Shown: piece after piece, positions 21,519-44,666 of the stretch | How the letters are laid out: the number at the start of each line of letters is the position of its first letter | Numbering within the stretch: the stretch's first letter is position 1 | Assembly (NCBI GenBank): GCA_964552725.1 | Contig: CAZKHU010000005.1 | Location: forward strand, 1-49,994 | Reading direction: 5' to 3' | Source of the DNA: an uncultured Syntrophus sp. | Lineage (GTDB): Bacteria; Desulfobacterota; Syntrophia; Syntrophales; UBA5619 | DNA: 49,994 nucleotides | Notes under the pieces: generated by a model | Told to the model about the DNA's origin: nothing | Databases searched by the model: none | What the model saw: only the letters and a program-made list of their open reading frames with translations | Made by a program: the position numbers and the translations under genes

Positions 21519-22355
21519 TTACCGGTAATAATCGCCGTGCAGTGAATCCACGAGAAAAGGAAGGGAAAATACAGTCAGCAGCGATACGGCGATGCAGATA
21601 ATCAAAACGGCGATGCCTTTTTTCCCCTTCCAGCCGAAGAAGCGGCGCAGGTGCAGATATACCCCCAGCAAGAGCCAGGTTATGAGCGACCAGGTTTCAA
21701 TCGGATCCCATCCCCAGTATCTTTCCCAACTTTCGTGGGCCCAGAGTGCGCCTGTGGCAATGGTAATTGTCCAGCAGCAAAAAGCGAAGGCCGTGATTTT
21801 GTAGATATAGTCGTCCAGAAGCTCCGCGGCGGGAAGCGTGGCCATAAATCGCGCCTGACTCCTCCCGCCCTTCAGCAGGTAGGCAACGATCAGCGCCATG
21901 ACGATGCAAAATGCGCCCACGGCCAGCTTTGTAAAAAAGACGTGGGGGAGAACCCAGAGGCTGTTAAAGCTCGCCGGAAGCATCGTGACCGCCGTACCGG
22001 AACAAAGGGCGGCCAGCGTCGCGAAAAGGGCAAGCGGCGCCACGAAAAGGCCGGAGAAGCGAATCTCCGGATGGCGGCGCGAAAGGTACAGAAACTGGCC
22101 AAGCATCACCAGGGCGCTGGAGGAGAGGACTTCATATCTGGTCAGATACGGACCGTGGAAGACATACGACCATCTCACCAGCAGCGCAAGGGTCTGGGGA
22201 AGCAAGCCGGCCAGGATGAACGTCATCCCGCAGGCAAGAGACTTGTTTTTGCCAAAGATCGTTCCCCGAAAGAAACAAAGCGTCGCCGCCAGATACGCCG
22301 TCATGGCAAGCCAGTGGAGCATGATTTCGTATTTAGCAAGGAGGGCGTTTTCCAT
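21519..22355 (-). CDS. ccsA: System II cytochrome c biogenesis protein CcsA/ResC (haem handling)
   Basis: WWD-type motif WGWDPIETWSLITWLL. Polytopic, 278 aa, and follows the ResB gene. Confidence 0.9.
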   Translation of the reverse strand: MENALLAKYEIMLHWLAMTAYLAATLCFFRGTIFGKNKSLACGMTFILAGLLPQTLALLVRWSYVFHGPYLTRYEVLSSSALVMLGQFLYLSRRHPEIRFSGLFVAPLALFATLAALCSGTAVTMLPASFNSLWVLPHVFFTKLAVGAFCIVMALIVAYLLKGGRSQARFMATLPAAELLDDYIYKITAFAFCCWTITIATGALWAHESWERYWGWDPIETWSLITWLLLGVYLHLRRFFGWKGKKGIAVLIICIAVSLLTVFSLPFLVDSLHGDYYR

Positions 22356-22358
22356 GAA

Positions 22359-23771
22359 TTATCGTCCTGTTCCAGGGCTACCGCCGGGCAGGCCTTTTAC
22401 CATCCCCACGGCGTCTGCGAGCAGAATCTTGTTTCCAGCTTTGGTTTTAACCGCCACGGCAACGATAAAAATTCCGTTCTCCCCTTTCGTTGCGGAAACG
22501 AGAATCTCCTGCGGCGCAAAAAAGAAAATCATGAATACCCCCAACACATTGAGCAGAAGCCCCCCATAAATGAGGATGACAAACCTGTTTTCGGTCAGTC
22601 TCAGGCCGCTCCAGTTTCTTATCTCCTCAAATCTGAACCGCGACTCTCCGACCAGCGCCTCCTCGCCCGGCTTCAGGACGGCCCGGCCCGCCTCTTTTTC
22701 TCCTGTCATGAATCTTAACTGCAATGAGGGATCCAGCGGATAAGGCGAGCGTCCGCTCCGATCCGGGGTGAAGGCCATCTCCAGAATGTAGTCCGTCGTC
22801 GGGAAATCACTGCGTCCAGTCAGAGGCCTTCCCGCCGGCGCCATATCGAGGGAAAAATAGGTCGGCAGCCCCTCCGTGCCTTCGGTAGAAAGCGATATCT
22901 TCAAGGTATAACCGAAATGGGCGGATTGACTGACGGATACGCCCCCGATATCAATGGATTTCCCTCTGGTCAGCGACTTTTTGACGGACAATCCCCGCCG
23001 CTCGATTATGACGTCGCTTTTTAGTTCCTTCAACTCACCCGTGTCCCAGTATGAGTGAGAGAGTTTCTCTAATTGAATGCCGAAGCCCGGATCGAAGCGG
23101 CCGCTGAAAATGCCATTTTCGCAACTGAGAAAGTCCTCCTGTCGGCCGGAGAAGGAGTCGCCTTCGATGAGTTGCACGAATCCCCGTTTCTGAAAGGCAA
23201 CTGTCAGCAAGGCGGCGAGGATGAGCAGAAGCATGCCGCCATGGAAGATAACGCCTCCCCAGACATTGCGCCTGTTTTTGAAAAAAATGAGCCCTTCCGC
23301 GTTTTCTTGATGATGCGTCTCCTTTTGAAAACCCCGTTTCGCGAAACGCTTTCGCAGTGCTGCCGCATCAAACGCGTCGGTTGGGAAAACGACTTCCGGG
23401 GTCAGCGGAAAGAGGGGTGGCGCGGCGGCGCAGGCGCGCCATGCTTTTCTGAACTGTCCTTGGAGGGATAGGGTTATGGAAAACAACATTAAAAGGACGA
23501 GGAGTAGAAACCAGAATGAGGAAAATATCCGGTTCAACTGGAACCAGACCGCCAACTGGAAACTGACGGGATGCTCCATCCGCCAGGCCTCGAAAAAGGA
23601 GGACGGGGTGTTGGCGCTCTGGGGAATCAGGGCGCCGGCCAGGCAGGCAATAAGCAGCAGGCAAAGCAGCAGGATCACTGTTTTCGGGGCGGTGAGAATC
23701 TTTTTTATTTTCCCGGCAAAAGCGAGAAGCGCCGTATTTTCTCCTTTTCCCAAACAGCGCCGCACTGTCAA
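22359..23771 (-). CDS. resB: System II cytochrome c biogenesis protein ResB/CcsB
   Basis: N-terminal TM ending ...LAGALIPQ, a large periplasmic domain and C-terminal TMs. 4-nt overlap with the upstream cytochrome gene. Confidence 0.85.
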   Translation of the reverse strand: MTVRRCLGKGENTALLAFAGKIKKILTAPKTVILLLCLLLIACLAGALIPQSANTPSSFFEAWRMEHPVSFQLAVWFQLNRIFSSFWFLLLVLLMLFSITLSLQGQFRKAWRACAAAPPLFPLTPEVVFPTDAFDAAALRKRFAKRGFQKETHHQENAEGLIFFKNRRNVWGGVIFHGGMLLLILAALLTVAFQKRGFVQLIEGDSFSGRQEDFLSCENGIFSGRFDPGFGIQLEKLSHSYWDTGELKELKSDVIIERRGLSVKKSLTRGKSIDIGGVSVSQSAHFGYTLKISLSTEGTEGLPTYFSLDMAPAGRPLTGRSDFPTTDYILEMAFTPDRSGRSPYPLDPSLQLRFMTGEKEAGRAVLKPGEEALVGESRFRFEEIRNWSGLRLTENRFVILIYGGLLLNVLGVFMIFFFAPQEILVSATKGENGIFIVAVAVKTKAGNKILLADAVGMVKGLPGGSPGTGR

Positions 23772-25738
23772 TCAGCCCCAGTCACAGAAGTATTATGCCG
23801 CTGAGAACCAGGAATATAGCAATTTCCCTCGGTGTAGCCGGTCGGCGTGGTGGCTTTCTTGAATCCCCGAAGTTTGCTTTGACTGCCGTAAGGGGCCCCC
23901 CAGGGAGGTACAGGACTGTTATAGGCGATCAACCGCGACACGCGGGAGCCATGCGGCGTTTCGATATGGCATGCTACACAGGAGAGGCCCACTTGATATT
24001 TATTTCTATGTGGGTCTTGACTATGAACGTTGTTTTTCCAGCCGCCGCTATTTAAGGGATGACAGTTAAGACAGAACAGCCCGGTCAAAATGCCGCCGAG
24101 CGTATAATAAGACCCGCCCACGTCTTTCGGCCAGTATTTATTCAGACCTTTCAGCATGAAGGCGGAATTCGAGCCGTGCGGCCCCCGGGGGTCGCTGGAG
24201 TTCTCACTATCCGCCCCGTGACAATCGGAGCAGTACATGGTCTGCGCGCCGACACTGGCATTCCAGGGAGGCAGGAGCTGGGCTGCCGTCAGGGAACGAG
24301 TGCCATAGCTTCCCGTCTGGCTGCTCAGGTCCACCTCTACCGGGTGAGCGGACTTGTTGCCGGGGCTGAACTCCCACGCCTGGTCGGTGATGATGTAGGG
24401 GCTCGAAAGCCCCACCCAGGAGGCCAGCGGGGTAACGGTGTTCTGGATGGCGTACCCAGAGTGGCACTTGTAACAGATCTGATACTCCTTAGTGGCGGCA
24501 TTGAGGGTGATGTATGTTCTTGCCGCCCACAGGGGAGCTGTCGTCGGCTCCACGCCAGTCGCGCCGGTCAGGGGGCCGGAATTGGCAACCAGATTGGAGG
24601 CGCTGGTGACGGTCGCGGGATACCACAAGCCGGTCTCCACCCGTTTAGGCATATTTTTCGCCTGATGGGGGCTGTGGCAGTCATAGCATTCGGCGTGCCG
24701 GTTGGCCGCTCCGAGATCGTCAGGATACAGCACATCGAGGTTCCGGTGTTTTCCGATAGCGGCAACCGGATGAACTTTTGCCAGATGAAAAACCGTATAG
24801 ATGTTCTTCGCCGCCCCCAAAGTGCCGCCGTGACAGGAACTGGACGTGCCGTTATAGCAGGTATTTTCCTCAAGTTTTCTCGAAAGATACGGCGTCCCGG
24901 CGCCTGAATGCGATTTGTGGCAGGCGGCGCAGGCCGCCTCGGCGACTTTTGCCCCCGGAATGGGCGGCGGCTCGTCGCTGGGGAGGATCTCCCTCTCCGA
25001 CGTCTGGTGAATGCTGCCGCTCCAGCCTGTCTTGTCGTGACAGGCGGTGCAGAGAGCGCCGTTTGTATTGGAAACGACGAGAAATTTGCCGTTTGCATCA
25101 TTATGGGGATCATGGCAGGAGGTGCATTCCACATAGCCCTTGATTGTACCGGTAGCCGTCCCGTACAGCTTCACCCCTGTGTAGGGCTTGGGATTGATGG
25201 AGGGGGCAGTCGCCTTGAGTTCCATGCCGCGAACGCCTGAACCGAAAACAATAGTCATCCCGCTATCGTATTTTACCGAAACCGGGTGATCGTCCCGCAA
25301 ATCAGTCCCCAGATATCCCGCCGCCGTGCCGGGCATTTTTCCGAAGGCGTCAACGCCGCTCATGGCAAGGGGCGACGTCTGCGCAACGGCCCGCACGGTA
25401 TAGACAGAGCCGATCGCCACCGTGCCGTCATGGCAGGAAAGGCAGAGGCGGGAGCGCTGTCCCACGTCGGAAGGCGTGGCATAACCGGCGCGCGTCAGGT
25501 AGTCGCTGGTGTACATGGTGTATGCCGCAGTTGTCACCGTATGGTTCCAGAGGGGCACCCCCGGATTGGCGTTATGGGGAATGTGGCAGAAGATGCACCG
25601 CTCCGTTTCCGCCGTGGCCTTGATTGTTCCCGGTCCGCTTACGGAAAGATTGTGTTTAGAACTGGCAAGATTCGCCCCCGCCGGTGCGCTGCCGGCAAAG
25701 AGCGCTGCCGCAACTATTATTAATACCCTGTACTTCAT
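23768..25738 (-). CDS. Secreted multihaem c-type cytochrome (10 CXXCH plus one CX7CH candidate)
   Basis: Signal peptide. CXXCH sites at residues 48, 99, 205, 230, 270, 351, 422, 503, 556 and 587. The N-terminal ~230 aa are paralogous to the small tetrahaem proteins at 33958-36393. Confidence 0.9.
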   Translation of the reverse strand: MKYRVLIIVAAALFAGSAPAGANLASSKHNLSVSGPGTIKATAETERCIFCHIPHNANPGVPLWNHTVTTAAYTMYTSDYLTRAGYATPSDVGQRSRLCLSCHDGTVAIGSVYTVRAVAQTSPLAMSGVDAFGKMPGTAAGYLGTDLRDDHPVSVKYDSGMTIVFGSGVRGMELKATAPSINPKPYTGVKLYGTATGTIKGYVECTSCHDPHNDANGKFLVVSNTNGALCTACHDKTGWSGSIHQTSEREILPSDEPPPIPGAKVAEAACAACHKSHSGAGTPYLSRKLEENTCYNGTSSSCHGGTLGAAKNIYTVFHLAKVHPVAAIGKHRNLDVLYPDDLGAANRHAECYDCHSPHQAKNMPKRVETGLWYPATVTSASNLVANSGPLTGATGVEPTTAPLWAARTYITLNAATKEYQICYKCHSGYAIQNTVTPLASWVGLSSPYIITDQAWEFSPGNKSAHPVEVDLSSQTGSYGTRSLTAAQLLPPWNASVGAQTMYCSDCHGADSENSSDPRGPHGSNSAFMLKGLNKYWPKDVGGSYYTLGGILTGLFCLNCHPLNSGGWKNNVHSQDPHRNKYQVGLSCVACHIETPHGSRVSRLIAYNSPVPPWGAPYGSQSKLRGFKKATTPTGYTEGNCYIPGSQRHNTSVTGAD

Positions 25739-26727
25739 TAATACTCCCTGAGATATTGAAATATCTGTATCCTGCCGTTATAGGAATCGGAGACAAATAT
25801 CCGGTCTTTTTCGTCAATAAAAATGGCAGAGGGAACGTAAAACTCGCCGCTTCTTGTCCCCCTCTGACCGAAGACCAGCAGCAACCGCCCTTTTTCATCA
25901 AAAATCTGTACAGCATCAAAGAGGCCATCGACGATGTAAATGTGGCCATCCCCATCCAGCGCCACCGCTTTCGGATTGGCAAAATCCCCGGTGGAATCAC
26001 CATGCCTGCCGAATTTAAAGAGGAATTTTCCCGTCTCCGAAAAAACCTGCAACCTCGCATTCAGCGTGTCGCAGACATAAACCCGGCCATCTTTACCGAT
26101 GGCAATGCCCGTGGGATAATTAAATTCGCCGTCGTTTGTCCCCCTCTTCCCCAATGACAGCAGTTTTTCTCCCGTCGGGCTGAATTTGAAAATCTGGTGT
26201 GCGCGCGTGTCGGAAATCCATACAGAATTATCCAGCGGCGATACAGCGACGGCTGTCGGCCGCAGAAAGGGAAAGCCGGCGGCAAATTCCCCGGTCAAGC
26301 CTCCCTGCCCGTTAAAAACAAGCACCTTTTTCATAACCGAATCAGTCACCAGCAGACGGCCATCAAGCGTGAAAGCGGCCCCGACCGGCGAGGTCAGCCT
26401 TGCCTTCCGGGGAACAATTATTTTATAGTTATTGTCTATTAAATCAAACAGGTGAAACCCGGCAAGGATTACGTCGGTAACGCATATCCGGTCTTTCCGG
26501 ACAGCGATGGCAAAGGGACGTCTGATCCCCTCCGGCTCGTCGCCGGCAATGAATTCCCATATTTTCTTGAAGAAGGACTTTTTAATCTTCAGATCGGAGG
26601 GCCCTCTTACCTCCTGGACAAATCTGATCCTCGATATCTCCGGCGGCGGCGGCCAGGTAAGCTCATCAGCCCATGCCGCATAAGGCAAAAGGAACAGGAT
26701 GACGATAGTGGAAGCAATTCTTCTCAT
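25738..26727 (-). CDS. NHL-repeat six-bladed beta-propeller protein (paralog 1)
   Basis: Signal peptide MRRIASTIVILFLLPYAAWA and WPPPPEISRIRF. Repeated (Y/F)VxDxxNxRxQ(V/I)F blades, ending IQIFQYL. TAATG overlap with the downstream cytochrome. Confidence 0.8.
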   Translation of the reverse strand: MRRIASTIVILFLLPYAAWADELTWPPPPEISRIRFVQEVRGPSDLKIKKSFFKKIWEFIAGDEPEGIRRPFAIAVRKDRICVTDVILAGFHLFDLIDNNYKIIVPRKARLTSPVGAAFTLDGRLLVTDSVMKKVLVFNGQGGLTGEFAAGFPFLRPTAVAVSPLDNSVWISDTRAHQIFKFSPTGEKLLSLGKRGTNDGEFNYPTGIAIGKDGRVYVCDTLNARLQVFSETGKFLFKFGRHGDSTGDFANPKAVALDGDGHIYIVDGLFDAVQIFDEKGRLLLVFGQRGTRSGEFYVPSAIFIDEKDRIFVSDSYNGRIQIFQYLREY

Positions 26728-26799
26728 ATTAAAATGCACCTCAAAGCCCGCGCTATCCACATCTTTGAAAAACGAGCCAATTGCAAAACTCCCAATTCT

Positions 26800-26939: not shown

Positions 26940-26962
26940 GACAAAACGATTTGCAATTACCT

Positions 26963-27613
26963 CTAACGACAGTTATCAAGTTTATACTCCGCCATTTTTG
27001 CCTTCACGGCATTGTGAAGCTCAAAGAGTTCGGTCGTTGCCATGTTTTTCTTCTCCTCCGGCATGTCGCCATCTCCCAGCAATGCAATCAACGCCTTAAT
27101 CCGCGTCAACTTTTCTTTCAGCAGGGAGACATCTGTGGAATACTTGTCTATCAGATACATATACTGCCGGTGCAGGCGGGAAAAGAGCTTTGCGTCCGCA
27201 ATAATAGCCGCCGCCTTTCTGAAATCCAGCGCAGCCAGCCGATCGGCGATGCGCTCATAAGACATGAACTCTTTGGCAATCCTTCTCATCATTATGTCCG
27301 CTGCAATAATGATGATTATGAAGAATATAACAGAAAACTCCACAAAAAAAAGAAGAAGCTTGAACGTTGCCATCTCTGTCATACTCTTAAAGTTGGAATG
27401 AATGTAGTACATGCTTTCTTCGAAGAAACCGCGAAGCATTATGAAATAAGCAACCCCGGAAACAATTATCAAAAGGGAAATTATGACAAGAAAAAACAGA
27501 ATGAATCTTTTCTGAAAATCCTTCTCCACATAGAAATTCTTTCTTCGCCCGTCTATTTTCTCGCCGGTCAGAAAGCTGCCCATTCTTTGAAAAATCGTCT
27601 CTGCAATCGACAT
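26963..27613 (-). CDS. Two-TM membrane protein with a HAMP-like/coiled-coil cytoplasmic tail and no output domain
   Basis: Two hydrophobic spans followed by DIMMRRIAKEFMSYERIADRLAALDF and heptad-like sequence. RBS AAGGAGGAAA. Confidence 0.5.
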   Translation of the reverse strand: MSIAETIFQRMGSFLTGEKIDGRRKNFYVEKDFQKRFILFFLVIISLLIIVSGVAYFIMLRGFFEESMYYIHSNFKSMTEMATFKLLLFFVEFSVIFFIIIIIAADIMMRRIAKEFMSYERIADRLAALDFRKAAAIIADAKLFSRLHRQYMYLIDKYSTDVSLLKEKLTRIKALIALLGDGDMPEEKKNMATTELFELHNAVKAKMAEYKLDNCR

Positions 27614-27708: not shown

Positions 27709-28500
27709 CTACTTTGTATGACATTCAAAGCACAAGGCGCTCCCCCTGTTGCTCCGGACAAGCATGGCCGGCAGAGTGGAGTAGAGATTATGACAGGAGC
27801 CGCAGCCGAGCTTCCCGTCAAACAATCTGATCCGCCTGTTGAGCAGTTCCTTCCTTCTATATCCGCCTTTTCTTGCTGCCTGTTGATAATCTCCGCCTAT
27901 GGGATGGCTGCCGGCATTCCCGGCGCCGTGTTGCCAGATGCCGCCGCCGATATTAACCACGCGCGCCCCGGCAAGTCCGCCATCATGGCAACCGAGGCAT
28001 TCCTGAGATTCACGGTCCAGAGGCTGACTGGGGTTTACCGTCTCGTACTGTGGCTGATGGAGCAAAGAAGAGACAACCTCATGCCCGTATTTATTTTTTT
28101 TGAAAAGCGTTTCCCGATGACAGCTCATGCAGAAGGCCTTCCCCGTTTTTTCTGCCACCAGCAAATATTTTCTGCTCCCGTGAATTTCATGGCAGGTCGC
28201 GCAGGTCATTTTTCCCGCCCAGTCCAGCCTGAATTCCGGCGGCAGCGGGAAGGACGGTTTCACCCCGTACGGATGAGACATGATGGTTCCAATCTGCGCA
28301 TGACATCCCCTGCAAAGCTTGTCCACATCGCTGACGAGCAGTATCTTTCCACCCTTCAAGGGCGTGTTGAGATGGCACTGGCCGCACTTGCCCTCGAAGA
28401 GGTGTTCTTTCTCCATGTTTCCTGCAAAAGCAAGCAATGCCGAAAACGCCCCGCTAAATAATAAAGCGATCAAGAACGGCCTGCATCTTTTCTGCGTCAT
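27709..28500 (-). CDS. Secreted heptahaem c-type cytochrome
   Basis: Signal peptide plus seven CXXCH sites (CGQCH, CRGCH, CATCH, CMSCH, CLGCH, CGSCH, CFECH). Confidence 0.85.
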   Translation of the reverse strand: MTQKRCRPFLIALLFSGAFSALLAFAGNMEKEHLFEGKCGQCHLNTPLKGGKILLVSDVDKLCRGCHAQIGTIMSHPYGVKPSFPLPPEFRLDWAGKMTCATCHEIHGSRKYLLVAEKTGKAFCMSCHRETLFKKNKYGHEVVSSLLHQPQYETVNPSQPLDRESQECLGCHDGGLAGARVVNIGGGIWQHGAGNAGSHPIGGDYQQAARKGGYRRKELLNRRIRLFDGKLGCGSCHNLYSTLPAMLVRSNRGSALCFECHTK

Positions 28501-35603: not shown

Positions 35604-35623
35604 TGCGTCATTTCACCCAATTT

Positions 35624-35685: not shown

Positions 35686-35694
35686 AGGACAAAG

Positions 35695-36473: not shown

Positions 36474-36598
36474 GGAATTAGAAGTCAGCAAAAAAACGCT
36501 CCGGACGGATCATTGATATTACGACAAGGGGAAATTCCTCCCTCATGACTGGTTCAAAAAGGGACTTTCCCCCCCCGGCAACCAACATAATCCCATTG

Positions 36599-36637
36599 TG
36601 GGTGATATGCCCCACCCACAATGGGGCATATCACCCA
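36599..36637. promoter_or_regulatory. Perfect 16-bp-arm palindrome, candidate enhancer (UAS) or operator
   Basis: TGGGTGATATGCCCCA (36599-36614), 7 nt, then TGGGGCATATCACCCA (36622-36637). Its centre is about 150 bp upstream of the sigma54 promoter at 36458-36473. A competing 7-bp stem TGTGGGT/ACCCACA spans 36597-36620. Confidence 0.45.
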
Positions 36638-36685: not shown

Positions 36686-37708
36686 TCAGCGGGCGGCTTT
36701 ACTCTTCAGATATTGAAAGACGTTTATCCGTTTATTATATTGATCGGCGACGTAGATTTTATCATCCGCGTCGATATACATCCCCGCGGGGAGCCAGAAC
36801 TGCCCCGGCTTGTTGCCCATCTCTCCGAAAAACATCAGCAGTTGCCCCTGCTCGTCAAAGATTTGCACGTTGTTGAAGGCGGAATCGACGACATAGATAT
36901 GGCCGTCGCTATCGACCGCGATCCCCTTGGGACGGGAAAACATCCCCGGCGCGTCGCCTACTTTACCGAATTTGCTAATAAATTTACCGTCGGCGTCGAA
37001 TACCTGCACGCGGAAATTCATCGAGTCGCTGACATAGACCTTGCCGTTTTTACTGACAAAGACATTGGTCGGGTAGTTGAACTGGGCATCCCCGTCGCCG
37101 CGGCTCCCCACCACCGCCACCTGTTTTCCCTCCTTCGAATAGATGAACAACTGGTGTTTGTTGGTGTCCACGATATACACCCTGTCCAGGGCGTCGTTCA
37201 CGGCGATCCCGGTCGGCTGCAGGAAGGCGCCCTTTTCACCGATGACCCGCGCGTACTTTCCGTCTTTGTCAAAGACAACCACCCTATCCTGCTTGGTGTC
37301 GGAGACATACATGTTTCCCGCCGCATCGGCCGCAATCCCGATCGGCTTGGCGAGAAACCCCTTCCCCTCCAGCCCCGCATGAAAGTACTTCTTGTTTTTT
37401 ATGTCAAAAACAACTGCCCGGCCAATGCCCGTATCGGTCACGATTACCCGATCCCTGCCGGCAAAAACACCGTAGGGCTTGCCCAGTCCCATCCCGACGT
37501 CCGATTCTCCGAGGAGCGTGGTCAGCAGTTTCTGGCTGCCTGTTTGCTCCTGCACATCATTGGAGCTTTCATAGGTTCTTAAATACCTGATCCGCGGCTC
37601 ATCCGGGGGAAGCGGCCAGACCAGCTCCACCTCTTTTTTAACCTCCGCCCCCGCGCAGGCAAAAAGAAGGAATGCCAATCCTATCCAGTATAAACGCTTT
37701 CTTCTCAT
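36686..37708 (-). CDS. NHL-repeat six-bladed beta-propeller lipoprotein (paralog 3)
   Basis: MRRKRLYWIGLAFLLFACAGA lipobox and WPLPPDEPRIRY. NHL blades, ending INVFQYL. Confidence 0.85.
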   Translation of the reverse strand: MRRKRLYWIGLAFLLFACAGAEVKKEVELVWPLPPDEPRIRYLRTYESSNDVQEQTGSQKLLTTLLGESDVGMGLGKPYGVFAGRDRVIVTDTGIGRAVVFDIKNKKYFHAGLEGKGFLAKPIGIAADAAGNMYVSDTKQDRVVVFDKDGKYARVIGEKGAFLQPTGIAVNDALDRVYIVDTNKHQLFIYSKEGKQVAVVGSRGDGDAQFNYPTNVFVSKNGKVYVSDSMNFRVQVFDADGKFISKFGKVGDAPGMFSRPKGIAVDSDGHIYVVDSAFNNVQIFDEQGQLLMFFGEMGNKPGQFWLPAGMYIDADDKIYVADQYNKRINVFQYLKSKAAR

Positions 37709-37733
37709 CGAACACCTCGCTATGTCCACACCC

Positions 37734-39122
37734 TCAAATGCCGAATTTCTGCATCCGGTACCTCAGCGTATCCCTTGTTACCTTAAGCAGCCTGGCTGCC
37801 TGTGCCTGATTGCCGTTTGTCATATTGAGCGCTTGCAGAATACATTCCTTTTCCACCCTGGCCAACGCAATTCCCTCTTCCGGGACGGTGACCGCCAAAG
37901 CCGTTACCGTTGCGTTGCCGCTTTGCGCCATTGCATCACTCGCGACAGGTCTTTTTATCTCCAAAGGAAGATGATCCGGCAAAATGGTGTCCGCGTCCAC
38001 GTCGGCAAGGATCATGACCCGCTCAATCACATTTCTCAATTCCCGGACGTTGCCAGGCCAGTGGTATTGCAGGAGCAGTTCCTCCGCCCCTTTTGAAAGG
38101 TAGCGGATATCTCTTTTGAATTCCCTGTTCAGTTGGCCGATGATGTTCATCGCGATGGTCACGATATCCTGTTTTCTTTCGCGGAGCGGCGGGATATAAA
38201 TGGGCAGCACCTTCAAACGGTAAAAGAGATCCTCGCGGAAATTGCCCGCTTCCACCTCCCGTTCGAGTTTGCGATTGGTGGCGGCGATAATGCGGACATC
38301 CAGGCTGATATCCTTGCTGCCGCCGATATGTTTGAAGGTCTTTTCTTCCAGCACCCGCAGCAGTTTCACCTGCGTGGAAGGTTTGACATCGCCGATCTCG
38401 TCCATATACACCGTGCCGCCCTCGGCTGCCTCAAAGAGTCCTTTCTTGGCGCTCTTGGCGTCCGTGAAGGCGCCCTTCTCAAAACCGAACAGCTCGCTTT
38501 CAATCAGGGTCTCCGGCAGCGCCGTGCAGCTTATTTCCAGAAAGGGTCTTGTCGCCCGGCCGCTCTCATAATGGATAATTTTTGCCAGCAGGTCTTTGCC
38601 GACGCCGCTCTCTCCCTGGATCAGCACCGTGGAACAATCCGTCGCGGCGACCTTTTTTGCCAGCGACAAAACCTCCATCATATTGGCGGAACAGGTGGTA
38701 AAGCGCTCAAAGGAATAGTGGCCGCTGCCCGCTATTCTCAGTTCGCGCACCTCTTTTTTAAGACGGGCCGTTTCGAGCGCCCGGTTCGCTATGATCCTCA
38801 CCGATTCAAATTCAAAGGGCTTTTCTATATAATCGTAGGCGCCTGCCTTGATGGCGGAAACGGCGTTTTCCACGCCGCCAAAGGCGGTAATGATGATAAT
38901 GATAACATCCCTGTTGAGCTGTTTGAGCTCTTTGAGAACGTCCAGACCGTTTTTGTCGGGAAGTTTGACATCGAGAAAGACAATCTCGGGATTATTCTCC
39001 TTAAAACAATTGATGCCCTCCCGGGCAGTGCCGGCGGTAAAGACATCAAACCCTTCCTTTTCGAACTCCTTCTTCAAGGACCAGCACATCAAATTTTCAT
39101 CATCCACGACCAGCAATTTCAT
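37734..39122 (-). CDS. Sigma54-dependent response regulator (NtrC-type enhancer-binding protein)
   Basis: REC domain (MKLLVVDDE...FLDVKLPD). AAA+ domain with GESGVGK and ESELFGFEKGAFTDA (a GAFTGA variant). Fis-type HTH at the C-terminus. The ORF-track start at 39191 is an extension. Confidence 0.9.
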   Translation of the reverse strand: MKLLVVDDENLMCWSLKKEFEKEGFDVFTAGTAREGINCFKENNPEIVFLDVKLPDKNGLDVLKELKQLNRDVIIIIITAFGGVENAVSAIKAGAYDYIEKPFEFESVRIIANRALETARLKKEVRELRIAGSGHYSFERFTTCSANMMEVLSLAKKVAATDCSTVLIQGESGVGKDLLAKIIHYESGRATRPFLEISCTALPETLIESELFGFEKGAFTDAKSAKKGLFEAAEGGTVYMDEIGDVKPSTQVKLLRVLEEKTFKHIGGSKDISLDVRIIAATNRKLEREVEAGNFREDLFYRLKVLPIYIPPLRERKQDIVTIAMNIIGQLNREFKRDIRYLSKGAEELLLQYHWPGNVRELRNVIERVMILADVDADTILPDHLPLEIKRPVASDAMAQSGNATVTALAVTVPEEGIALARVEKECILQALNMTNGNQAQAARLLKVTRDTLRYRMQKFGI

Positions 39123-39129: not shown

Positions 39130-40626
39130 TCACCTTTTTTCGTCAACGGCGGGGAGATAAACCTCGAAGGTCGTACCCTCCCCCACTTCACTTTCCACCT
39201 CTATAAAACCGCCATGCTCCTCAACAATCTGGGCGCTTATCGAAAGCCCCAGTCCGGTGCCGCTTTTCTTGGTTGTAAAAAACGGATCAAAAATCCCGAC
39301 CAGATTCTCCTCGGCAATCCCGCTCCCCGTGTCTTTGATCATGATCTCAACGTATTCTCCGGGACCTTCAACACGCTCTTTGTATGTCATGGCCACGGCG
39401 ATATCGAGAACGCCCTTTTCCTGCATGGCCTCGATGGCGTTGAGACAAATGTTCAAAAACACCTGTCTCAACGCCTTGCCGTCGGCATATACTTTTTTAA
39501 TCCCTTCACCGACGGAAACATTGACTTCGATAGATTTTTGATTGGCAAACTGACTGATTAACAACAGCGTTTCCTGTAGAACTTCGTCAATGGCCGTCAA
39601 CTTTTTCTCGGCGCTCACAGGCTTCGCAAATTCAAGTATTTTTTTTACCGTGCCGTCCAGACGCTTTATCTGATTCACGACTTCCCTAATTACCATCTTG
39701 TGTTCATTTTTTTCTTCAAGGTCGCCTTCGATCACCTGCAGAGCGGCGCTGATGCAGGCGAGGGGATTTTTAATCTCATGAGTGATGCCGGAGGCAATCT
39801 CGCCGATCATGGCCATCTGGGAGGCTCTTTTCATCTGCGCCCGGTGACACGCTTCCACTTCCTTCTGGGATTCGCTTATTCTCCAGGTCATGGAATTAAA
39901 CTTTTCCGCCAGCCTTCCTATGATATCATTGTGTTTTACGGTAACTCGCTTTTTAAAATTTCCATCTTCGACATACTGTATCATTTCCATGATCTCGTCC
40001 AGCGGTTCATGGATCAACTTGATTACGATAAAGGAAAAAACGAGGGAAAAAAGGACAATCGAAAGCAGGGCGAACCATACGTTATCAATAAGAATAGGCC
40101 GAACAAGCGAAGAGACCGCAACCATCGGGATTTTCACCCCAATGACGCCGAGCACGCCCCTGTCGGCAGAATGACACTTCCGACAGGAGGGCATGTTTGT
40201 AATGGGCAAAAATCTCATAAAATACTTCGTTCTGTTTTCTACAATGAAAAAAATCTCCCCGTTGCCATGCTTCGCGTATCCTTCATAATCCGCTTCCCCC
40301 AACCTCCGGCCCACGTCAAATCTTTGGGAAGACGCTATTATTACACCATTCTCCGGCCTGAATATCTGCAACATCCCGATTTTTTTATGTAAGGCGGCAT
40401 TTTCCACAAAATCTTGCACTTCAGCGCATTTGTTCTGGAGCATCAACATGCTTACGCCACTCAGGATGCAGTTGGAGATGTTCATTACCTTCTCTTGCTG
40501 GTACGCACTATTCTCTTTTCTTACCGACTTATACTGATTTACCGTCCCCAGGCCGATGATGATCACGAAGGCCGCAATGGTTATGCCGATTAGCTTCTGG
40601 TTTAAACTGACGTTTAACATTCTCAT
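39130..40626 (-). CDS. Sensor histidine kinase with a periplasmic CXXCH-containing sensor domain and HAMP
   Basis: TM1, a ~130 aa periplasmic domain ending NMPSCRKCHSADRGVLGV, TM2 and HAMP. H-box SGITHEIKNPL and HATPase GTGLGLSIS. Confidence 0.85.
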   Translation of the reverse strand: MRMLNVSLNQKLIGITIAAFVIIIGLGTVNQYKSVRKENSAYQQEKVMNISNCILSGVSMLMLQNKCAEVQDFVENAALHKKIGMLQIFRPENGVIIASSQRFDVGRRLGEADYEGYAKHGNGEIFFIVENRTKYFMRFLPITNMPSCRKCHSADRGVLGVIGVKIPMVAVSSLVRPILIDNVWFALLSIVLFSLVFSFIVIKLIHEPLDEIMEMIQYVEDGNFKKRVTVKHNDIIGRLAEKFNSMTWRISESQKEVEACHRAQMKRASQMAMIGEIASGITHEIKNPLACISAALQVIEGDLEEKNEHKMVIREVVNQIKRLDGTVKKILEFAKPVSAEKKLTAIDEVLQETLLLISQFANQKSIEVNVSVGEGIKKVYADGKALRQVFLNICLNAIEAMQEKGVLDIAVAMTYKERVEGPGEYVEIMIKDTGSGIAEENLVGIFDPFFTTKKSGTGLGLSISAQIVEEHGGFIEVESEVGEGTTFEVYLPAVDEKR

Positions 40627-41645
40627 TTTTTATGACAAGCCTGACAAATTCCCATTTTTCCTCCCGGGGCTTCAAAGGCAAAGAGTTCCCTGTTGTTGGC
40701 GGCATGAGGCGAGTGACAGGAGGCGCAGGAAAAGGCCCTGTCCGGCTGCATCGGGTTTTTCCCCCCCGATAGGGGATGGGTGTTGCCAAACACATAACTG
40801 GCAATGACATGCTTCCCGGTAGCCTTCTCTTCGTGACAACCTATGCACAGGGCATTGGTTTTTTTCCGCAGGAAAAATTTCTCGGCGGAGGAATGAGGAT
40901 CATGGCATATCGCACAGTCGCCGGTTGCGGTGGGACCGTGGGTATATTTCTTGTCCTGCCACGGCTTCATCGCCTCTTCGTGGCAGGTGAAACATAGTTT
41001 TTTCAATGGCTTGGCAGTACCGTATTTGTTCGCGCCCGAAGCGGCATGGCAACTGACACAGTCGCCTACCGCCGCCGGCCCATGCTTGAACTTTTCCGCA
41101 ACGATCTGGGGATGGCAGCCAAGACAGGGGGAATCGGCAGGAAGCGTCATTTTTTTTACCGGCAGCATCAGCCCTTTGTGGCAATCGACACACAGTGCCT
41201 CCCCAAAAGTCGTATGGAAGGAAACGGCCCGATAAGCGGGAGGAGCAACACTTTTATCGCGGGAAGACTTCGCCGCGTAAAACAACTTCAAACTTTCCCT
41301 TACAACCTCTTTCCCCTGTCGGCAACCATTGACGGTCACGATGTTTTCACCTTCATCGAGGGTCAGGATAGCGCAAATGCTTATCATGCCGTCGGGCCGC
41401 CTATTTCGTTCCCTGTCGGCAACCGGCAAAACGCTGGGGGTTTTTTTGTTGACGCCGGCGGAAACAGTGTCAATCTTCCGGGGATCGACAGCGACGACTA
41501 ATGTTGCACTGCCGCCGGACAAAGAGGTCATATTGCCGGGCAGCACAATCCGCATGCCGCCTTCGTCAGCCGCCAGGGCAAACGCCTGCCAGCCGAACAA
41601 AACAGATGCCGCCAGCAGCCAGATCCTTTGCCATTTTTTTCTCAT
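40623..41645 (-). CDS. Secreted octahaem c-type cytochrome with a ~130 aa non-haem N-terminal domain
   Basis: Signal peptide plus 8 CXXCH sites (CVDCH, CLGCH, CVSCH, CFTCH, CAICH, CIGCH, CASCH, CQACH). ATGA overlap with the kinase gene. Confidence 0.85.
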   Translation of the reverse strand: MRKKWQRIWLLAASVLFGWQAFALAADEGGMRIVLPGNMTSLSGGSATLVVAVDPRKIDTVSAGVNKKTPSVLPVADRERNRRPDGMISICAILTLDEGENIVTVNGCRQGKEVVRESLKLFYAAKSSRDKSVAPPAYRAVSFHTTFGEALCVDCHKGLMLPVKKMTLPADSPCLGCHPQIVAEKFKHGPAAVGDCVSCHAASGANKYGTAKPLKKLCFTCHEEAMKPWQDKKYTHGPTATGDCAICHDPHSSAEKFFLRKKTNALCIGCHEEKATGKHVIASYVFGNTHPLSGGKNPMQPDRAFSCASCHSPHAANNRELFAFEAPGGKMGICQACHKK

Positions 41646-42856
41646 TTGCCGCCGGTCTTTAAGATTTCCTCCAAGGCCTGCTTATAGTAACCGTTGGCCC
41701 TGGCATATTCGCCCTTCTCCGCAAAAAATTTGCCGATCTTGTTCATGATCTCCGGCGACTTGTTGCTCAGGGAAGCGGCATGGGCAAAAGAGGCTTCCGC
41801 CTCCTCCCGCAAACCCTTACCATAGGAAATAAAGCCGGAATAGACATAGGCGTCCGGGGTTTCTTCCCTGGTCAGGCTTTCAGCAAACATCTTCATGGCT
41901 TTGTCTGCATCCTTGTCATGATAATACAGCTTTCCCCTGCTCATCTTCACGGCCGGATCATCCAATATGGCTGCATCGATCTTTGCCGGCAATGCCCTTG
42001 CCTCATCGATCCGCTTCAAACTCAAATACAATTCCATCAGCCGGACGATAGGTTTGACATATTTGGGATCGGCTTTCAAGGCTTTTTCGTAAAGATCGAC
42101 AGCCCTGTCATAATCCTTTTTCTTTTCAAACTTGCGCCCCATCTGATAGGACAACATTGCCAGCTTGACGGGCCGGTAAACCTCCTGCTCCACCAATCGT
42201 TTATCACCCAGAAAGTATCCGACCTCTTCAAAAAAAAGTTGGGAACCGACAAGGGGAAAGCCGGACATCTCCCGGCTGATCACCAGGTTGTTATCAAGCA
42301 AGATCAAGGTGGGCAGGGCAATAACTCCCAGTTTGTCAAACAGCGTCAAACCGAAATCTACAAACATGGGGAAGGTAAGTCCTTCGGAAGCCGCCTTTAT
42401 TTTCTTGAGATCCTCCTCGGTGATATTCTGTTCCTCCACGTTAACAGCCACTATTTCCAGACCCTGCTGCTTCCACTTGGCGTAATTCGTCTCCAGCAGT
42501 CTTAGGGCCCTCTGGGAATTTTTCGTCGAGGTCTGCCAGAAAATCAACAACGTCCCCTTTTTACCCGCAAGCTCCGTCAAAGAGAAACTCTTACCCGCCG
42601 CATTGCTGACGGAAAAAGGGGGAATTGCCTCTCCCGTTTGCAAATCCCGCAGCGCGGAGACGCATTCAGGGGAAAAGACGATAAAAGAAAATACAGCCAA
42701 GAATAAGGCTCTTGCAAAAGTCTTCAAGAGAGATTGCTTCGTTGTTCCTCCTCGCAATGACAATCGTTCCGAGTAGTTGGTCATTGCGAGCGAAGCGCGG
42801 CAGTCCCGGTTTTGTGACTTTTGCAATTGCCTCAAGAGTAACAACAATTTTTTCAT
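41642..42856 (-). CDS. Thioredoxin-fold (TlpA/ResA-like, active-site Cys absent) plus TPR protein
   Basis: Redoxin-like block GKKGTLLIFWQTSTKNS..., followed by several TPR-like repeats. The ATG at 42856 overlaps the upstream stop (ATGA), but codons 15-43 translate a REP element. An alternative TTG start at 42727 gives MKTFARALFLAVFSFIVFSPECVSA. Confidence 0.6.
   Translation of the reverse strand: MKKLLLLLRQLQKSQNRDCRASLAMTNYSERLSLRGGTTKQSLLKTFARALFLAVFSFIVFSPECVSALRDLQTGEAIPPFSVSNAAGKSFSLTELAGKKGTLLIFWQTSTKNSQRALRLLETNYAKWKQQGLEIVAVNVEEQNITEEDLKKIKAASEGLTFPMFVDFGLTLFDKLGVIALPTLILLDNNLVISREMSGFPLVGSQLFFEEVGYFLGDKRLVEQEVYRPVKLAMLSYQMGRKFEKKKDYDRAVDLYEKALKADPKYVKPIVRLMELYLSLKRIDEARALPAKIDAAILDDPAVKMSRGKLYYHDKDADKAMKMFAESLTREETPDAYVYSGFISYGKGLREEAEASFAHAASLSNKSPEIMNKIGKFFAEKGEYARANGYYKQALEEILKTGGK
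42729..42807. repeat. REP-like element of the same family as 35624-35685
   Basis: GAGATTGCTTCG...CTCGCAATGAC (42729-42761) and GTCATTGCGAGCGAAGCGCGGCAGTCCC (42780-42807) match the two halves of the 35.6 kb copy. Confidence 0.6.
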
Positions 42857-43335
42857 CTCTTTGAAAAATACCTTTCCAACCCCTGTTCAAAAGCGCCCGA
42901 AGCGCCCCGCACATCGCCCGCCGCTTCCAATATCAGCCCCTTTTCATAATGGAGCCGCACCGGATGAGGACTTGTCCTCAAGGAGTCATTTAACAATTGT
43001 ACCGCCTTTTCCGTCTCTTTTCCGGCCGCCAGCGTCTTGGCCATCCCTATCTTGCCTTCAATGCCGCCGGGGTTGATTTCCATCGCTCGCCGGAAATGGA
43101 TTTCCGCCTGGCCCAAATCGCCACGCAGGAGGCTTGCCTCGCCATGGGCAAGCGAGGCAAGAAATTTGTTGCCTGCCTCGCTGAACCTGCCCGCCTCTTT
43201 TTCAACCTCCGCCACATTTTTGGCCTTGATAAGCAGTCTCACGGAAAGGGGCAGGGTATCCTCCGCCGACGCAAAACCGTATCCGGAGGCGATCATACAG
43301 AAAAAAATCAACAGCAGCGCTACTTTTATTTTCAT
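42853..43335 (-). CDS. Secreted TPR-repeat protein
   Basis: Signal peptide MKIKVALLLIFFCMIASGYGFASA followed by TPR-like helical repeats. 160 aa. Confidence 0.6.
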   Translation of the reverse strand: MKIKVALLLIFFCMIASGYGFASAEDTLPLSVRLLIKAKNVAEVEKEAGRFSEAGNKFLASLAHGEASLLRGDLGQAEIHFRRAMEINPGGIEGKIGMAKTLAAGKETEKAVQLLNDSLRTSPHPVRLHYEKGLILEAAGDVRGASGAFEQGLERYFSKR

Positions 43336-44666
43336 CGGTACTTCACCGCCTTCACGCGGTTATAGGGGTATTCGGCATGGCATCCCGGCTGACAGGTGCC
43401 GCCGTCCGGCATCTTTTTAAAGTTGATCGGGATCTTCCATCCGCCAAACGGGACCGCGTCGCGGACATGGTGAGGGTTGTTGTTGGCATGCGCTTCATGG
43501 CAGGCGCGGCAGGTTCTTCCCTTATCCGCCTTGTTGACATGGACGAAATGCAGATTTCTGTCGCCATTGCGAAAGCCGGTGAGGGTCGTCGTCTTGCTGT
43601 CCTGCACCAATGTCTGCTGATGGCATGTAAAGCAGAGCTCATAATTCGCCACGTTGAAAGGGGCATAAAACAGCGGCGGGAAATTGCTTCTCAGGATTCT
43701 GAAATAATCGGAGCCGTGGGTGTCATGGCAGGAGGAGCAGTCCTTTTCCAAGATGGGCCCGTGCTTGAATTTTCCCTCTTCGGCAATCTGTTTGATGTTG
43801 GCCACGGCCTTCTTTCCGCTCCCGTATGTTTTATCGTGACACTTAAAACAGGCGTTCATCGGTTCATCGCCGAGCAGCCTGGGGAAGTTGGTGGCGTGCG
43901 CATTGTGACACGCCAGACAGCCTTTTTGCAAACCGAGGGCCTTATGGGGAACCTTGCGCTTGGCAATCGACTCCTTCATTCCCTTGTGGCAATCAAAACA
44001 AAGCGCCGAAGCTGCGTCGTTTTTCAACTGGGGGCTATGATCCGAGGAATGCACCGTATGGCAAGCCACGCAATTCTCTTTAACCGGCTTGTGGACAACC
44101 TTCTTTTTCCCGAAATCATCCTTCTTGTCCACATGGCAGGAATAGCAGACATCGCCCATCTGCGCCTGCAGAAGGCGTGGAAAATCAGACTGATGAACAC
44201 TGTGGCAGGCAGTGCAGTCGCCGACGGCCACCGGCCCGTGGAGAAATTTTCCGGCAACGAGCTTCCGGGAATGACAGGTAAAACAAAGATCGACTCCCGC
44301 GCTCCGGAGCATGAACTTGTTCGGCGCCTGGTGAGGGCTGTGGCACAAGGTGCAATTGCCGTCTTTCACCGGTTTGTGCACGGCCTTCTTTGTGTCAACC
44401 GGATCGTGGCAACTGTAACAGAGCGCTCCGACATTCTTGATGGGGAGGAACTTGTGTTTCCCCGTTTCCTTGTGACATACCAGGCAGTCGTTGACGGCCA
44501 CGGGGCCATGAACAAACTTGTCCTTCCCCATCTTTGCGTGGCAACTCGCTGTAACACAGGATGTCTTCGCGGGGGCCTGCGCCCAGGCGCTGCCATTGGC
44601 AAAAAGAAAAAAAATCAGCCAACCAATCAAACTTGACAAAATACCTATCCGGCGGGTCATTCTCAT
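43332..44666 (-). CDS. Periplasmic multihaem c-type cytochrome (13 CXXCH plus CX4CH and CX3CH), c3/c7-repeat type
   Basis: Signal peptide ...GSAWA. Repeating units read (K)F.HGPVAV.DC..CH / C..CH... . It is the first gene after the sigma54 promoter at 44746. Confidence 0.9.
   Translation of the reverse strand: MRMTRRIGILSSLIGWLIFFLFANGSAWAQAPAKTSCVTASCHAKMGKDKFVHGPVAVNDCLVCHKETGKHKFLPIKNVGALCYSCHDPVDTKKAVHKPVKDGNCTLCHSPHQAPNKFMLRSAGVDLCFTCHSRKLVAGKFLHGPVAVGDCTACHSVHQSDFPRLLQAQMGDVCYSCHVDKKDDFGKKKVVHKPVKENCVACHTVHSSDHSPQLKNDAASALCFDCHKGMKESIAKRKVPHKALGLQKGCLACHNAHATNFPRLLGDEPMNACFKCHDKTYGSGKKAVANIKQIAEEGKFKHGPILEKDCSSCHDTHGSDYFRILRSNFPPLFYAPFNVANYELCFTCHQQTLVQDSKTTTLTGFRNGDRNLHFVHVNKADKGRTCRACHEAHANNNPHHVRDAVPFGGWKIPINFKKMPDGGTCQPGCHAEYPYNRVKAVKYR

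Follow-up and report, generated by a model that had tools for sequence, protein, structure and literature searches.

What kind of system is encoded when seven multihaem cytochrome genes stand together with propeller, folding and membrane-protein genes in a syntrophic bacterium? The question is raised by a block of genes on contig CAZKHU010000005.1 (assembly GCA_964552725.1) of an uncultured Syntrophus species, whose positions 1 to 49,994 form the window, that is, the whole stretch of DNA analysed here. When the open reading frames (ORFs) of the window were listed and translated, an unbroken series of 21 appeared on the minus strand between 44666 and 21519; these were numbered g1–g21 in order of transcription. 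As the initial annotation had described, 20 of these are co-directional genes and one (g11, a DDE_3 fragment of 120 aa) is the remnant of an insertion sequence (IS). Its count of 51 canonical CXXCH motifs in seven cytochromes (13 in g1, 8 in g4, 5 in g8, 4 each in g9 and g10, 7 in g16 and 10 in g19) was reproduced by translation and motif counting. We consider it likely that these genes form an extracellular electron-transfer cluster of the OmcE/Uet type, carried by a Syntrophales (Smithellaceae-like) genome. This interpretation draws on homology to OmcE, the fold of a large barrel, an MtrA-like cytochrome (g1), counts from a survey of related loci, synteny, a conserved -24/-12 motif and a CXXCH in the sensor proteins.

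OmcE-like cytochromes, the outer-membrane barrel and their multihaem partners

OmcE is the tetrahaem subunit of a Geobacter nanowire (PDB 7TFS). In phmmer searches, the OmcE filament 7tfs was matched by g10 (E 7e-21) and g8 (E 3e-18), as was the D. soudanensis OmcE bundle 9yuq (E 9e-20 and 3.5e-15, respectively). Aligning both solved OmcE proteins with g8, g9, g10 and the N-terminus of g19 showed four invariant CXXCH columns (C44/C47/H48, C96/C99/H100, C194/C197/H198 and C219/C222/H223) together with four further invariant histidines (H24, H51, H142 and H201). Four CXXCH and four further histidines are likewise the conserved positions reported for OmcE homologues (bioRxiv 10.1101/2025.10.22.684050), and part of what holds an OmcE filament together is a histidine ligating a haem of the neighbouring subunit (PMC12307469). 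Identity to OmcE in this alignment was 34–44%, with g9 reaching 44% to the G. sulfurreducens protein, and the small cytochromes were 33–42% identical to one another (g9 and g8, 42%). The fifth CXXCH of g8 sits in a variable loop of the alignment; OmcE-like proteins with five haems have been described, and their extra haem was suggested to be solvent-exposed (bioRxiv 10.1101/2025.10.22.684050). Judged by their sequences, g8, g9 and g10 are OmcE homologues with a complete set of haem ligands. To select likely nanowire formers, the same preprint asked for two kinds of neighbouring gene, one for a beta-propeller lipoprotein and one for a large outer-membrane barrel; here this company consists of the g14 barrel and the NHL propellers g7 and g12, both with lipoboxes.

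The g14 product had been described as a protein of about 700 aa ending in ...VSRPF. The ending is present, but the length did not hold, as the ORF has 668 codons and no in-frame signal peptide. An AlphaFold2 (AF2) model built on 19 sequences (mean predicted local distance difference test score, pLDDT, 73.7) was all-beta, with approximately 26–28 long antiparallel strands, and a Foldseek search of the PDB placed MtrB (6r2q_B, E 1.8e-7) at the top, followed by SprA, LptD and TonB-dependent transporters. The barrel had no match in Pfam or NCBIfam. About 20 full-length homologues were found by a word-based search, the closest of which (92–96% identical) are labelled Syntrophales or Smithellaceae. 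Residues 213–319 (window positions approximately 30127–30447) form a separate inserted beta domain of about 100 aa that is the most conserved stretch of the protein and had no match in Pfam, including as an isolated segment at E 10. This domain is 42–43% identical to a segment of otherwise unrelated proteins (P0021–P0023), one of which also has a pectate-lyase-like beta-helix.

A signal peptide for the barrel (MRFTGIRHAAALIVFFF...) can be read from a TTG codon at 31202, out of frame with the 668-aa ORF. The two are separated by a 1-nt deletion beside a T10 run, where the window and the related locus L083 read G-T10; in the related loci L084 and L085 the reading is G-C-T10, and the gene is intact and encodes 708 aa. 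Since the shift is common to two independent assemblies, it may be a real allele; possible readings of the deletion are a true frameshift, a site of slippage or a fault of the assembly. Transcriptional or ribosomal slippage classically occurs at tracts such as U10 and could restore the frame.

Among the other cytochromes, g1 matched MtrA (6r2q_A) in phmmer with an E value of 3.5e-18 and Pfam Paired_CXXCH_1 at E 5e-67, and scored 152 bits with the DmsE-family model, under the 192-bit cut-off of that model. In the five Geobacter-type loci introduced below (L002–L004, L012 and L013), g1 gave 200–220 bits to the cytochrome that comes after CcsA, and g4 gave 142–167 bits to the eight-haem ORFs. These scores identify g1 as a homologue of the 9–10-haem cytochrome, and g4 of the 8-haem cytochrome, of Geobacter omcE clusters. 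The seven-haem cytochrome g16 matched MtrA weakly (E 4.6e-4) and is conserved in the related loci L082–L085. NCBIfam gave a specific family for none of the cytochromes, the barrel, g15 or g17, and returned only generic paired-CXXCH models and DmsE/GSU2203 below cut-off.

The cytochrome g19 combines two parts, an OmcE-like tetrahaem module (residues 1–236) and a further stretch of about 420 aa with six CXXCH and one CX7CH. The module matched 7tfs at E 2e-27 over residues 7–236 and 9yuq at E 6e-22 by phmmer. With an AF2 model (pLDDT 66), the sole significant Foldseek match was OmcE, through the N-terminal part, and a PDB sequence search with the C-terminal 420 residues gave no match. The ten canonical CXXCH counted in the initial annotation are correct, but an eleventh site with expanded spacing, CYNGTSSSCH (residues 294–303), had been overlooked. 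Of 26 homologues from other phyla that were aligned, 24 have CXXCH in the corresponding column; among 51 closer homologues, the Cys–Cys spacing is 12 residues in 27, 7 in ten, 4 in six, and 11, 13 or 14 in the remaining eight. In the family alignment, 24 histidines are invariant for 11 haems, for which bis-His ligation needs 22, and homologues of g19 number more than 2165. We conclude that g19 is probably an undecahaem cytochrome with one expanded site, and speculate that the adjacent ResB/CcsA might be needed for the CX7CH site.

Survey of OmcE-like loci

A scan with the OmcE alignment, in which each species was represented by a single genome, confirmed at least 460 OmcE-like loci, and we examined 80 of them from Desulfuromonadia, Gammaproteobacteria, Planctomycetota, Bacteroidota, Ignavibacteriota, Acidobacteriota, Nitrospirota, Chlorobiota and other groups. 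The window proteins were compared with the six-frame ORFs of these 80 loci by blastp and hidden Markov model (HMM) searches. An NHL propeller was present in 77 loci, including all 52 loci of at least 15 kb. Barrels of the g14 family were found in 53 loci by HMM and in 61 when eight Geobacter-type barrels recognised by profile comparison were counted; with the HMMER filters off, four more barrel loci became significant, among them the UetC-like L009 (E 1.6e-14). Cytochromes resembling g19, of approximately 570–700 aa and with 11 haem motifs, occurred in 59 loci. Less frequent were Ccs genes (20 loci), sigma54 regulators (12) and peptidyl-prolyl isomerases (PPIases; 7). The commonest layout was an OmcE-like cytochrome, NHL, either a small MtrA-like five-haem cytochrome or a PPIase, barrel, NHL and an 11-haem cytochrome. 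Of 67 g19-like genes, 52 came directly after a co-directional NHL gene, and 63 of 81 OmcE-like genes had an NHL gene beside them.

The initial annotation had proposed a synteny check, and the gene order was indeed found both in relatives and across phyla. It is preserved in relatives whose barrels are 50–96% identical to g14. On the contig P0016, two OmcE-like genes are followed by PPIase and barrel, and then come NHL, a cytochrome of 668 aa, ResB and CcsA. In L082, five OmcE-like genes precede PPIase and barrel, after which come a g15-like gene, a cytochrome of 262 aa, a g17-like gene, NHL and a cytochrome of 735 aa. In L083 and L084, kinase, sigma54 regulator and NHL are followed by two or three OmcE-like genes and these by PPIase, barrel, (g15) and a g16-like cytochrome. 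The Geobacter-type loci have, in this order, ResB, CcsA, a 9–10-haem cytochrome, an 8-haem cytochrome, NHL, OmcE and a barrel, and a g19-like gene was found in none of these five. Their barrels aligned with the g14 family in hhalign with a probability of 97.8% (E 7e-13), over the N-terminal 180 columns only.

The frequency of g19-like proteins (59 of the 80 loci), their own NHL gene ahead and the 24 invariant histidines for 11 haems suggest a further, rather doubtful idea, namely that g19/UetJ-type proteins are specialised end subunits of OmcE-type filaments, acting either as a base or primer that links to the barrel conduit or as a solvent-exposed tip. As the N-terminal module of g19 is a complete OmcE unit, it could bind to OmcE subunits in head-to-tail fashion. 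The operons of Geobacter and Desulfuromonas are reported to contain no candidate gene for a tip or stopper (bioRxiv 10.1101/2025.10.22.684050), which is a further reason for the idea. If it were true, the ancestral and most widespread "nanowire" machine would consist of barrel, NHL, OmcE and UetJ, the Geobacter version would be a reduced derivative, and a Smithellaceae syntroph would use the barrel–NHL–OmcE–UetJ machine for direct interspecies electron transfer.

The copy number of the putative filament subunit ranges from 2 to 5 among close lineages. In L082 (GCA_900218215.1, positions 1072–5345), five tandem OmcE-like genes encoding 213–254 aa lie upstream of the PPIase and barrel. The g10–g11–g12 segment of the window is absent from the close relative L084, and the g11 remnant and the g12 NHL gene are absent from L083 too, which suggests a recent insertion or duplication. 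The g11 product covers only positions 57–141 of the 146 positions of the Pfam DDE_3 profile (E 9e-17). One surveyed locus, L060 (JBHHWA010000004.1), is labelled as a Thermoplasmata archaeon and carries a full bacterial-type module (kinases, sigma54 regulator, NHL, OmcE-like cytochrome, outer-membrane barrel, NHL and 11-haem cytochrome); this contig is probably mis-binned.

Accessory genes, regulation and surroundings

The coordinates of all features are given in the table. Pfam recovered each of the three NHL propellers that had been annotated (E 1e-28 to 1e-33), and their shared motifs WP(L/P)PP and (I/V)FQYL are visible in the translations. These paralogues are 37–48% identical, with g12 and g7 at 48%. 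Sorting NHL orthologues into lineages "next to OmcE" and "next to UetJ" by best match was uninformative, since g7 wins almost everywhere. The annotated SurA/PpiC-type PPIase g13 was also borne out (Pfam SurA_N and PpiC rotamase), and a g13-like gene is found directly upstream of the barrel in relatives and in L009, L016, L069, L057, L075 and L076.

Both proteins annotated as TPR proteins have Pfam TPR matches, and in one of them, g3, the repeats are fused to an AhpC/TSA thioredoxin fold. A homologue of g2 comes after the 13-haem cytochrome in L028. By eye, g3 lacks a CXXC active site, with FWQTSTKNS at the expected place, and its true start is probably downstream of the palindromic element between g2 and g3. 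Homologues of g3 occur in L028, L056, L049, L042 and L083, and in L028, L056, L049 and L083 the g3-type protein is kept beside g1-like and g4-like cytochromes. The label "HAMP-only" given to the membrane proteins g15 and g17 is unproven. Neither has a Pfam match, to HAMP or otherwise, also when searched as isolated segments at E 10; g15 gave weak NCBIfam matches to a kinase TM2/HAMP region (E 0.006), and g17 no significant NCBIfam family. The two were also compared directly as possible paralogues, and this was rejected. A g15-like gene is kept after the barrel in L082, L084 and L085, and a gene of 222 aa occupies the position of g17 in L082. Pfam likewise agreed with the ResB/CcsA pair. ResB stands at the position of g20 in the P0016 contig and in the Geobacter-type loci, and the uet cluster has ResB/CcsB at the equivalent position (bioRxiv 10.1101/2022.05.06.490989).

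The sigma54 two-component system named in the initial annotation is present, comprising a HisKA/HATPase kinase with HAMP (g5) and a sigma54 response regulator (g6) by Pfam. The periplasmic sensor of g5 contains one CXXCH (CRKCH, approximately residue 148) just before the second transmembrane (TM) segment, and the divergent hybrid kinase upstream of g1 has a sensor of the same Mcp40H-20-like type, also with a single CXXCH (CFQCH, approximately residue 149). A single CXXCH in both sensors suggests haem-based redox sensing, and both proteins are probably c-haem redox sensors. Regulation of the cluster probably runs through kinase g5 and activator g6, with the divergent hybrid kinase probably part of it. 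Kinases with a single CXXCH also adjoin sigma54 regulators in the OmcE-like loci L018 and L043.

A candidate -24/-12 promoter, CGGCGCGCCTTTTGC, lies 66 nt upstream of g8, and its GG and TTGC are found at the same spacing in the diverged L083, where the surrounding DNA is poorly conserved. Sites of -24/-12 type were seen upstream of g1, g4 and g10 as well; the candidate ahead of g1, TGGCAGAATATTTGC, approximately 80 nt upstream and with one mismatch to TGGCAC-N5-TTGC, is backed by position only. A strong hairpin with a 14-bp stem between g7 and g8, identical in L084, may be a terminator or an mRNA-stabilising element, so the cluster probably comprises several transcription units.

The cluster is bordered by an IS4-type transposase gene (DDE_Tnp_1) directly after ccsA and by the divergent hybrid kinase. 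Beyond this transposase gene, which stands between the two gene sets, plus-strand genes at 5973–18906 encode a CoA-transferase III, an acyl-CoA dehydrogenase, electron transfer flavoprotein (ETF) beta and alpha and a FixC-like flavoprotein, together with a methylmalonyl-CoA-mutase-like protein, hydantoinase A/B and a permease, a set that fits syntrophic acyl-CoA oxidation. Palindromes resembling repetitive extragenic palindromic (REP) elements, with CTCGCAATGACA arms, occur six times against 0.3 expected. The spurious N-terminal ORF extensions "CHCERSEAIS" and "SLRGGTTKQS" stem from these elements. The overlaps of 1–4 nt between genes noted initially are real except at g2/g3 and g8/g9, where they are artefacts of ORFs reading through the palindromes.

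Features of the cluster and its surroundings, in window coordinates
Feature	Position	Strand	Description	Domain match or basis
Hybrid histidine kinase	44895..47300	+	Divergent; HAMP, PAS, HisKA, HATPase, REC	Pfam
Candidate promoter of g1	44747..44761	-	Sigma54 -24/-12 type	Consensus match
g1	43332..44666	-	13-CXXCH MtrA/DmsE-like cytochrome, periplasmic or trans-outer-membrane	
g2	42853..43335	-	Small secreted TPR protein, N-terminal signal peptide	TPR_2, TPR_14, TPR_19
REP-like element	42751-42790		Between g2 and g3	
g3	41642..42856	-	AhpC/TSA thioredoxin fold and TPR	AhpC-TSA E 1e-15, TPR
g4	40623..41645	-	8-CXXCH cytochrome, non-haem N-terminal domain of ~140 aa	
g5	39130..40626	-	Sensor histidine kinase; HAMP, HisKA, HATPase	Pfam
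g6	37734..39122	-	Sigma54-dependent response regulator; REC, AAA+, Fis HTH; likely start MKLLVVDD at 39122	Sigma54_activat E 2e-65, Response_reg, HTH_8
g7	36686..37729	-	NHL six-bladed propeller, probable lipoprotein (LFAC lipobox)	NHL E 7e-33, DUF5128
Hairpin	36592..36625	-	Between g7 and g8	
Candidate promoter of g8	36459..36473	-	Sigma54 -24/-12 type	
g8	35695..36393	-	OmcE-like cytochrome, five CXXCH	
REP-like element	35623-35686		Between g8 and g9	
g9	34877..35551	-	OmcE-like tetrahaem cytochrome, true start MKCKVF at 35551	
g10	33958..34701	-	OmcE-like tetrahaem cytochrome	
g11	33505..33867	-	C-terminal remnant of DDE_3 (IS630-type) transposase, 120 aa	
g12	32233..33303	-	NHL propeller lipoprotein (LGC lipobox)	NHL E 1e-33
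g13	31183..32199	-	Periplasmic SurA-N and PpiC isomerase, UetB/OscH-like position	Rotamase_3 E 3e-25, SurA_N_3 E 6e-14
g14	29077..31202	-	Large outer-membrane beta-barrel including signal peptide from TTG 31202; ORF as it stands 29077-31083, 668 aa	
T10 run	31153..31162	-	A10 on plus strand, beside 1-nt deletion	
g15	28454..29023	-	Two-TM inner-membrane protein	HAMP-like by eye only
g16	27709..28500	-	7-CXXCH periplasmic cytochrome, at UetD/E/G position	
g17	26963..27613	-	Two-TM membrane protein	
g18	25738..26760	-	NHL propeller, signal peptide, without lipobox	NHL E 1e-28
g19	23768..25738	-	UetJ-like "undecahaem" (probable); stop of g18 overlaps its start by 1 nt	
CX7CH site of g19	24830-24859	-	CYNGTSSSCH	Motif analysis
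g20	22359..23771	-	ResB/CcsB, System II cytochrome c synthase subunit	ResB E 1.4e-34
g21	21519..22355	-	CcsA, System II subunit	Cytochrom_C_asm E 6e-30, WGWD motif
Transposase gene	19432-21342		IS4-type, DDE_Tnp_1	
Single REP-like arms	40798, 48214			

Proposed mechanism, rival explanations and known systems

The OmcE homology and ligands, the barrel model, the MtrA-like g1, the literature and synteny together support the initial proposal of a trans-envelope conduit with possibly polymerising secreted cytochromes. In the mechanism that we propose, the cytochromes and accessory proteins, which carry signal peptides (that of the barrel being encoded out of frame), would be exported, and the System II synthase ResB/CcsA would load haem onto the apo-cytochromes. 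Chaperone g13 and the NHL propellers, of which two would be lipoproteins and one soluble, may help to fold or position the barrel and the OmcE-type subunits, a role suggested by the strict gene pairing and by published work on OscH and OscD as far as that work is summarised in PMC13194489. In the outer membrane, the g14 barrel would sheathe an MtrA-like rod (g1, possibly g16 or g4, if any such pairing exists) and may double as an exit and anchor pore for filament subunits. Outside the cell, g8, g9 and g10 would polymerise through inter-subunit His–haem ligation as OmcE does, while g19, with its OmcE-like module and seven further haem sites, might link the conduit to the filament or form a terminal redox surface. 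The haem-c sensor g5 and activator g6 would control expression via the -24/-12 promoters before the cytochrome genes. A syntroph would likely use such a system to discharge electrons onto minerals, humics or a partner cell.

Several points weigh against this interpretation. The physiological weight of such filaments is debated. The TM-score of the g14 model to MtrB is only 0.27, other large barrels score similarly, and for g14 only "large outer-membrane barrel" is therefore secure. A consensus scan of the whole window for sigma54-like sites showed no enrichment, with 42 found against 52 expected. The barrel ORF of the window has lost its signal peptide through the 1-nt deletion, an IS remnant lies inside the cluster and a full IS beside it, so this copy of the cluster may be impaired.

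An unlikely alternative to an OmcE-type filament cluster is that the genes encode a porin–cytochrome conduit only, with g14 sheathing g1 or g16, g19 taking the part of MtrC, UndA or OccP as a monomeric reductase at the surface, and the small OmcE-like proteins being monomeric surface or shuttle cytochromes. The match of g1 to MtrA and the choice of MtrB as the best fold match of the barrel agree with such a conduit, as do the small five-haem g1-like cytochrome directly upstream of the barrel in many loci and the uet and occ papers, which read homologous clusters mainly as porin–cytochrome conduits with an extracellular undecahaem. However, both structurally examined members of the family, OmcE of G. 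sulfurreducens and of D. soudanensis, are filaments, and all ligands, including the histidine that reaches into the neighbouring subunit, are invariant in g8–g10. The conduit and filament models are also not mutually exclusive.

That the cluster is a decaying or phase-switched copy, non-functional here through loss of the signal peptide, IS invasion and redundancy among paralogues, appears quite improbable to us. The deletion at T10 common to the window and L083, the DDE_3 remnant, the DDE_Tnp_1 transposase right after ccsA and the REP-like palindromes between genes would fit decay. Yet all 20 other ORFs are intact, and the barrel ORF has remained open over 668 codons, at 92–96% identity to relatives and with its C-terminal ...RPF conserved, which argues for continued selection. 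The missing frame is moreover compatible with function if slippage on the U10 tract restores it, as is known in general, and a homopolymer-adjacent assembly error is possible too.

An OmcE/Uet-type cluster in this genome would place a complete system of this kind in a Syntrophales (Smithellaceae-like) genome, close to genes for acyl-CoA dehydrogenase and ETF of the sort typical for syntrophic oxidation. It offers specific candidate genes for direct interspecies electron transfer, or for electron disposal through cytochromes, in such syntrophs. It would also improve the annotation of proteins now labelled "cytochrome c3 family" or "hypothetical", and inform experiments that ask how a cytochrome filament starts, where it is anchored and how it ends.

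Although the initial annotation could not assign the gene order to a named system, it corresponds to the published order of the uet cluster. In "Candidatus Tenderia electrophaga" and other Tenderiales (uetA-J, ccsAB, nrfG), this order is tetrahaem UetA, PPIase UetB, 28-strand barrel UetC, trihaems UetD/E, cupredoxin UetF, trihaem UetG, NHL proteins UetH/I, undecahaem UetJ, CcsA, CcsB and a TPR protein (bioRxiv 10.1101/2022.05.06.490989). Except for the trihaems and cupredoxin, the core order is that of g10 and g13–g21: UetA corresponds to g10, UetB to g13, UetC to g14, the small cytochromes to g16, UetH/I to g18, UetJ to g19, and CcsA/CcsB to g21/g20. For the undecahaem, g19 has ten CXXCH and one CX7CH by motif count. 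The uet-like locus L009 contains homologues of g10, g13, g14, NHL and g19. No ORF for a trihaem c7 or cupredoxin (UetD/E/G, UetF) was found in 21519–44666, where g15, g16 and g17 hold their place. Unlike uet, the window has three tandem OmcE-like genes, an extra NHL gene and, upstream, g1–g4, a kinase and a sigma54 regulator; and whereas Tenderiales are thought to take electrons up, a syntroph would export them.

In the omcE cluster of Geobacter and Desulfuromonas (GSU0618 region), OmcE is accompanied by a pair of multihaem cytochromes, a pair of beta-propeller lipoproteins and a large barrel proposed as secretion pore or anchor, with resB/ccsB adjoining (bioRxiv 10.1101/2025.10.22.684050). 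The window has the same content, and g1 and g4 are homologous to the two cytochromes of the omcE cluster. Our comparison covers Geobacter and Desulfuromonadales relatives, G. sulfurreducens itself not being included. In the five loci retrieved, homologues of g1, g4, NHL, OmcE, ResB and CcsA are present and the barrels are related at the profile level; these loci lack the undecahaem and PPIase, and many continue with glycosylation genes.

The company of NHL, PPIase and porin-like genes that the initial annotation mentioned for omcS/omcE is the part list given in the omcE, osc and uet literature. The osc cluster of G. sulfurreducens, as summarised from Shen et al. 2025 in PMC13194489, serves OmcS with OscH as prolyl-isomerase chaperone, with the channel-like outer-membrane components OscEFG and with the beta-propeller OscD. 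By that description, it follows the same logic of filament cytochrome, isomerase, channel and propeller; its filament subunit is the hexahaem OmcS, which in this account has no overall sequence similarity to OmcE. We found no OmcS homologue in the cluster, where g10 gave only a local match to 6ef8 (E 3.7e-4). Also by description, the window resembles further NHL-containing cytochrome clusters. One is occ of "Ca. Dechloromonas occultata", which has an extracellular undecahaem OccP, of a larger size (922 aa), and proteins with six NHL repeats and is expressed during Mn(III) reduction. Others are those of Desulfovibrio ferrophilus IS5, where limitation of the electron donor leads to joint expression of NHL propellers and outer-membrane cytochromes.

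With MtrCAB of Shewanella (PDB 6R2Q), the window shares an MtrA-like rod (g1). MtrB is the best structural match of the large barrel, at the low TM-score of 0.27. In contrast to MtrB, to which it has no sequence similarity, g14 carries the inserted beta domain of about 100 aa, and Mtr lacks the OmcE, NHL and PPIase parts of the window. No MtrC/OmcA-type surface decahaem was found, and no PDB match to MtrC was better than E 0.009. Mtrc-MtrF_II-IV_dom (30-bit cut-off) was passed only by the MtrA-like g1 (44.9) and by g4 (36.0), over short stretches; it stayed under the cut-off on g8, g10, g16 and g19 and was absent on g9. The PCC3 and PCC4 systems (He et al. 2017) were set aside, as NHL is not mentioned for them and their 21–63-haem cytochromes and five-helix inner-membrane protein are absent here.

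The window thus unites Geobacter-type parts (g1, g4, NHL, OmcE, barrel and ResB/CcsA) with Uet-type parts (PPIase, a second NHL and the undecahaem), and does not represent a new system. This kind of cluster is already known in outline, with accessory parts that are experimentally uncharacterised. Our comparison suggests that the omcE, uet and occ-like clusters are versions of one widespread module, with a constant core of OmcE-like cytochrome, NHL and barrel, usually joined by a UetJ-like cytochrome that starts with an OmcE module.

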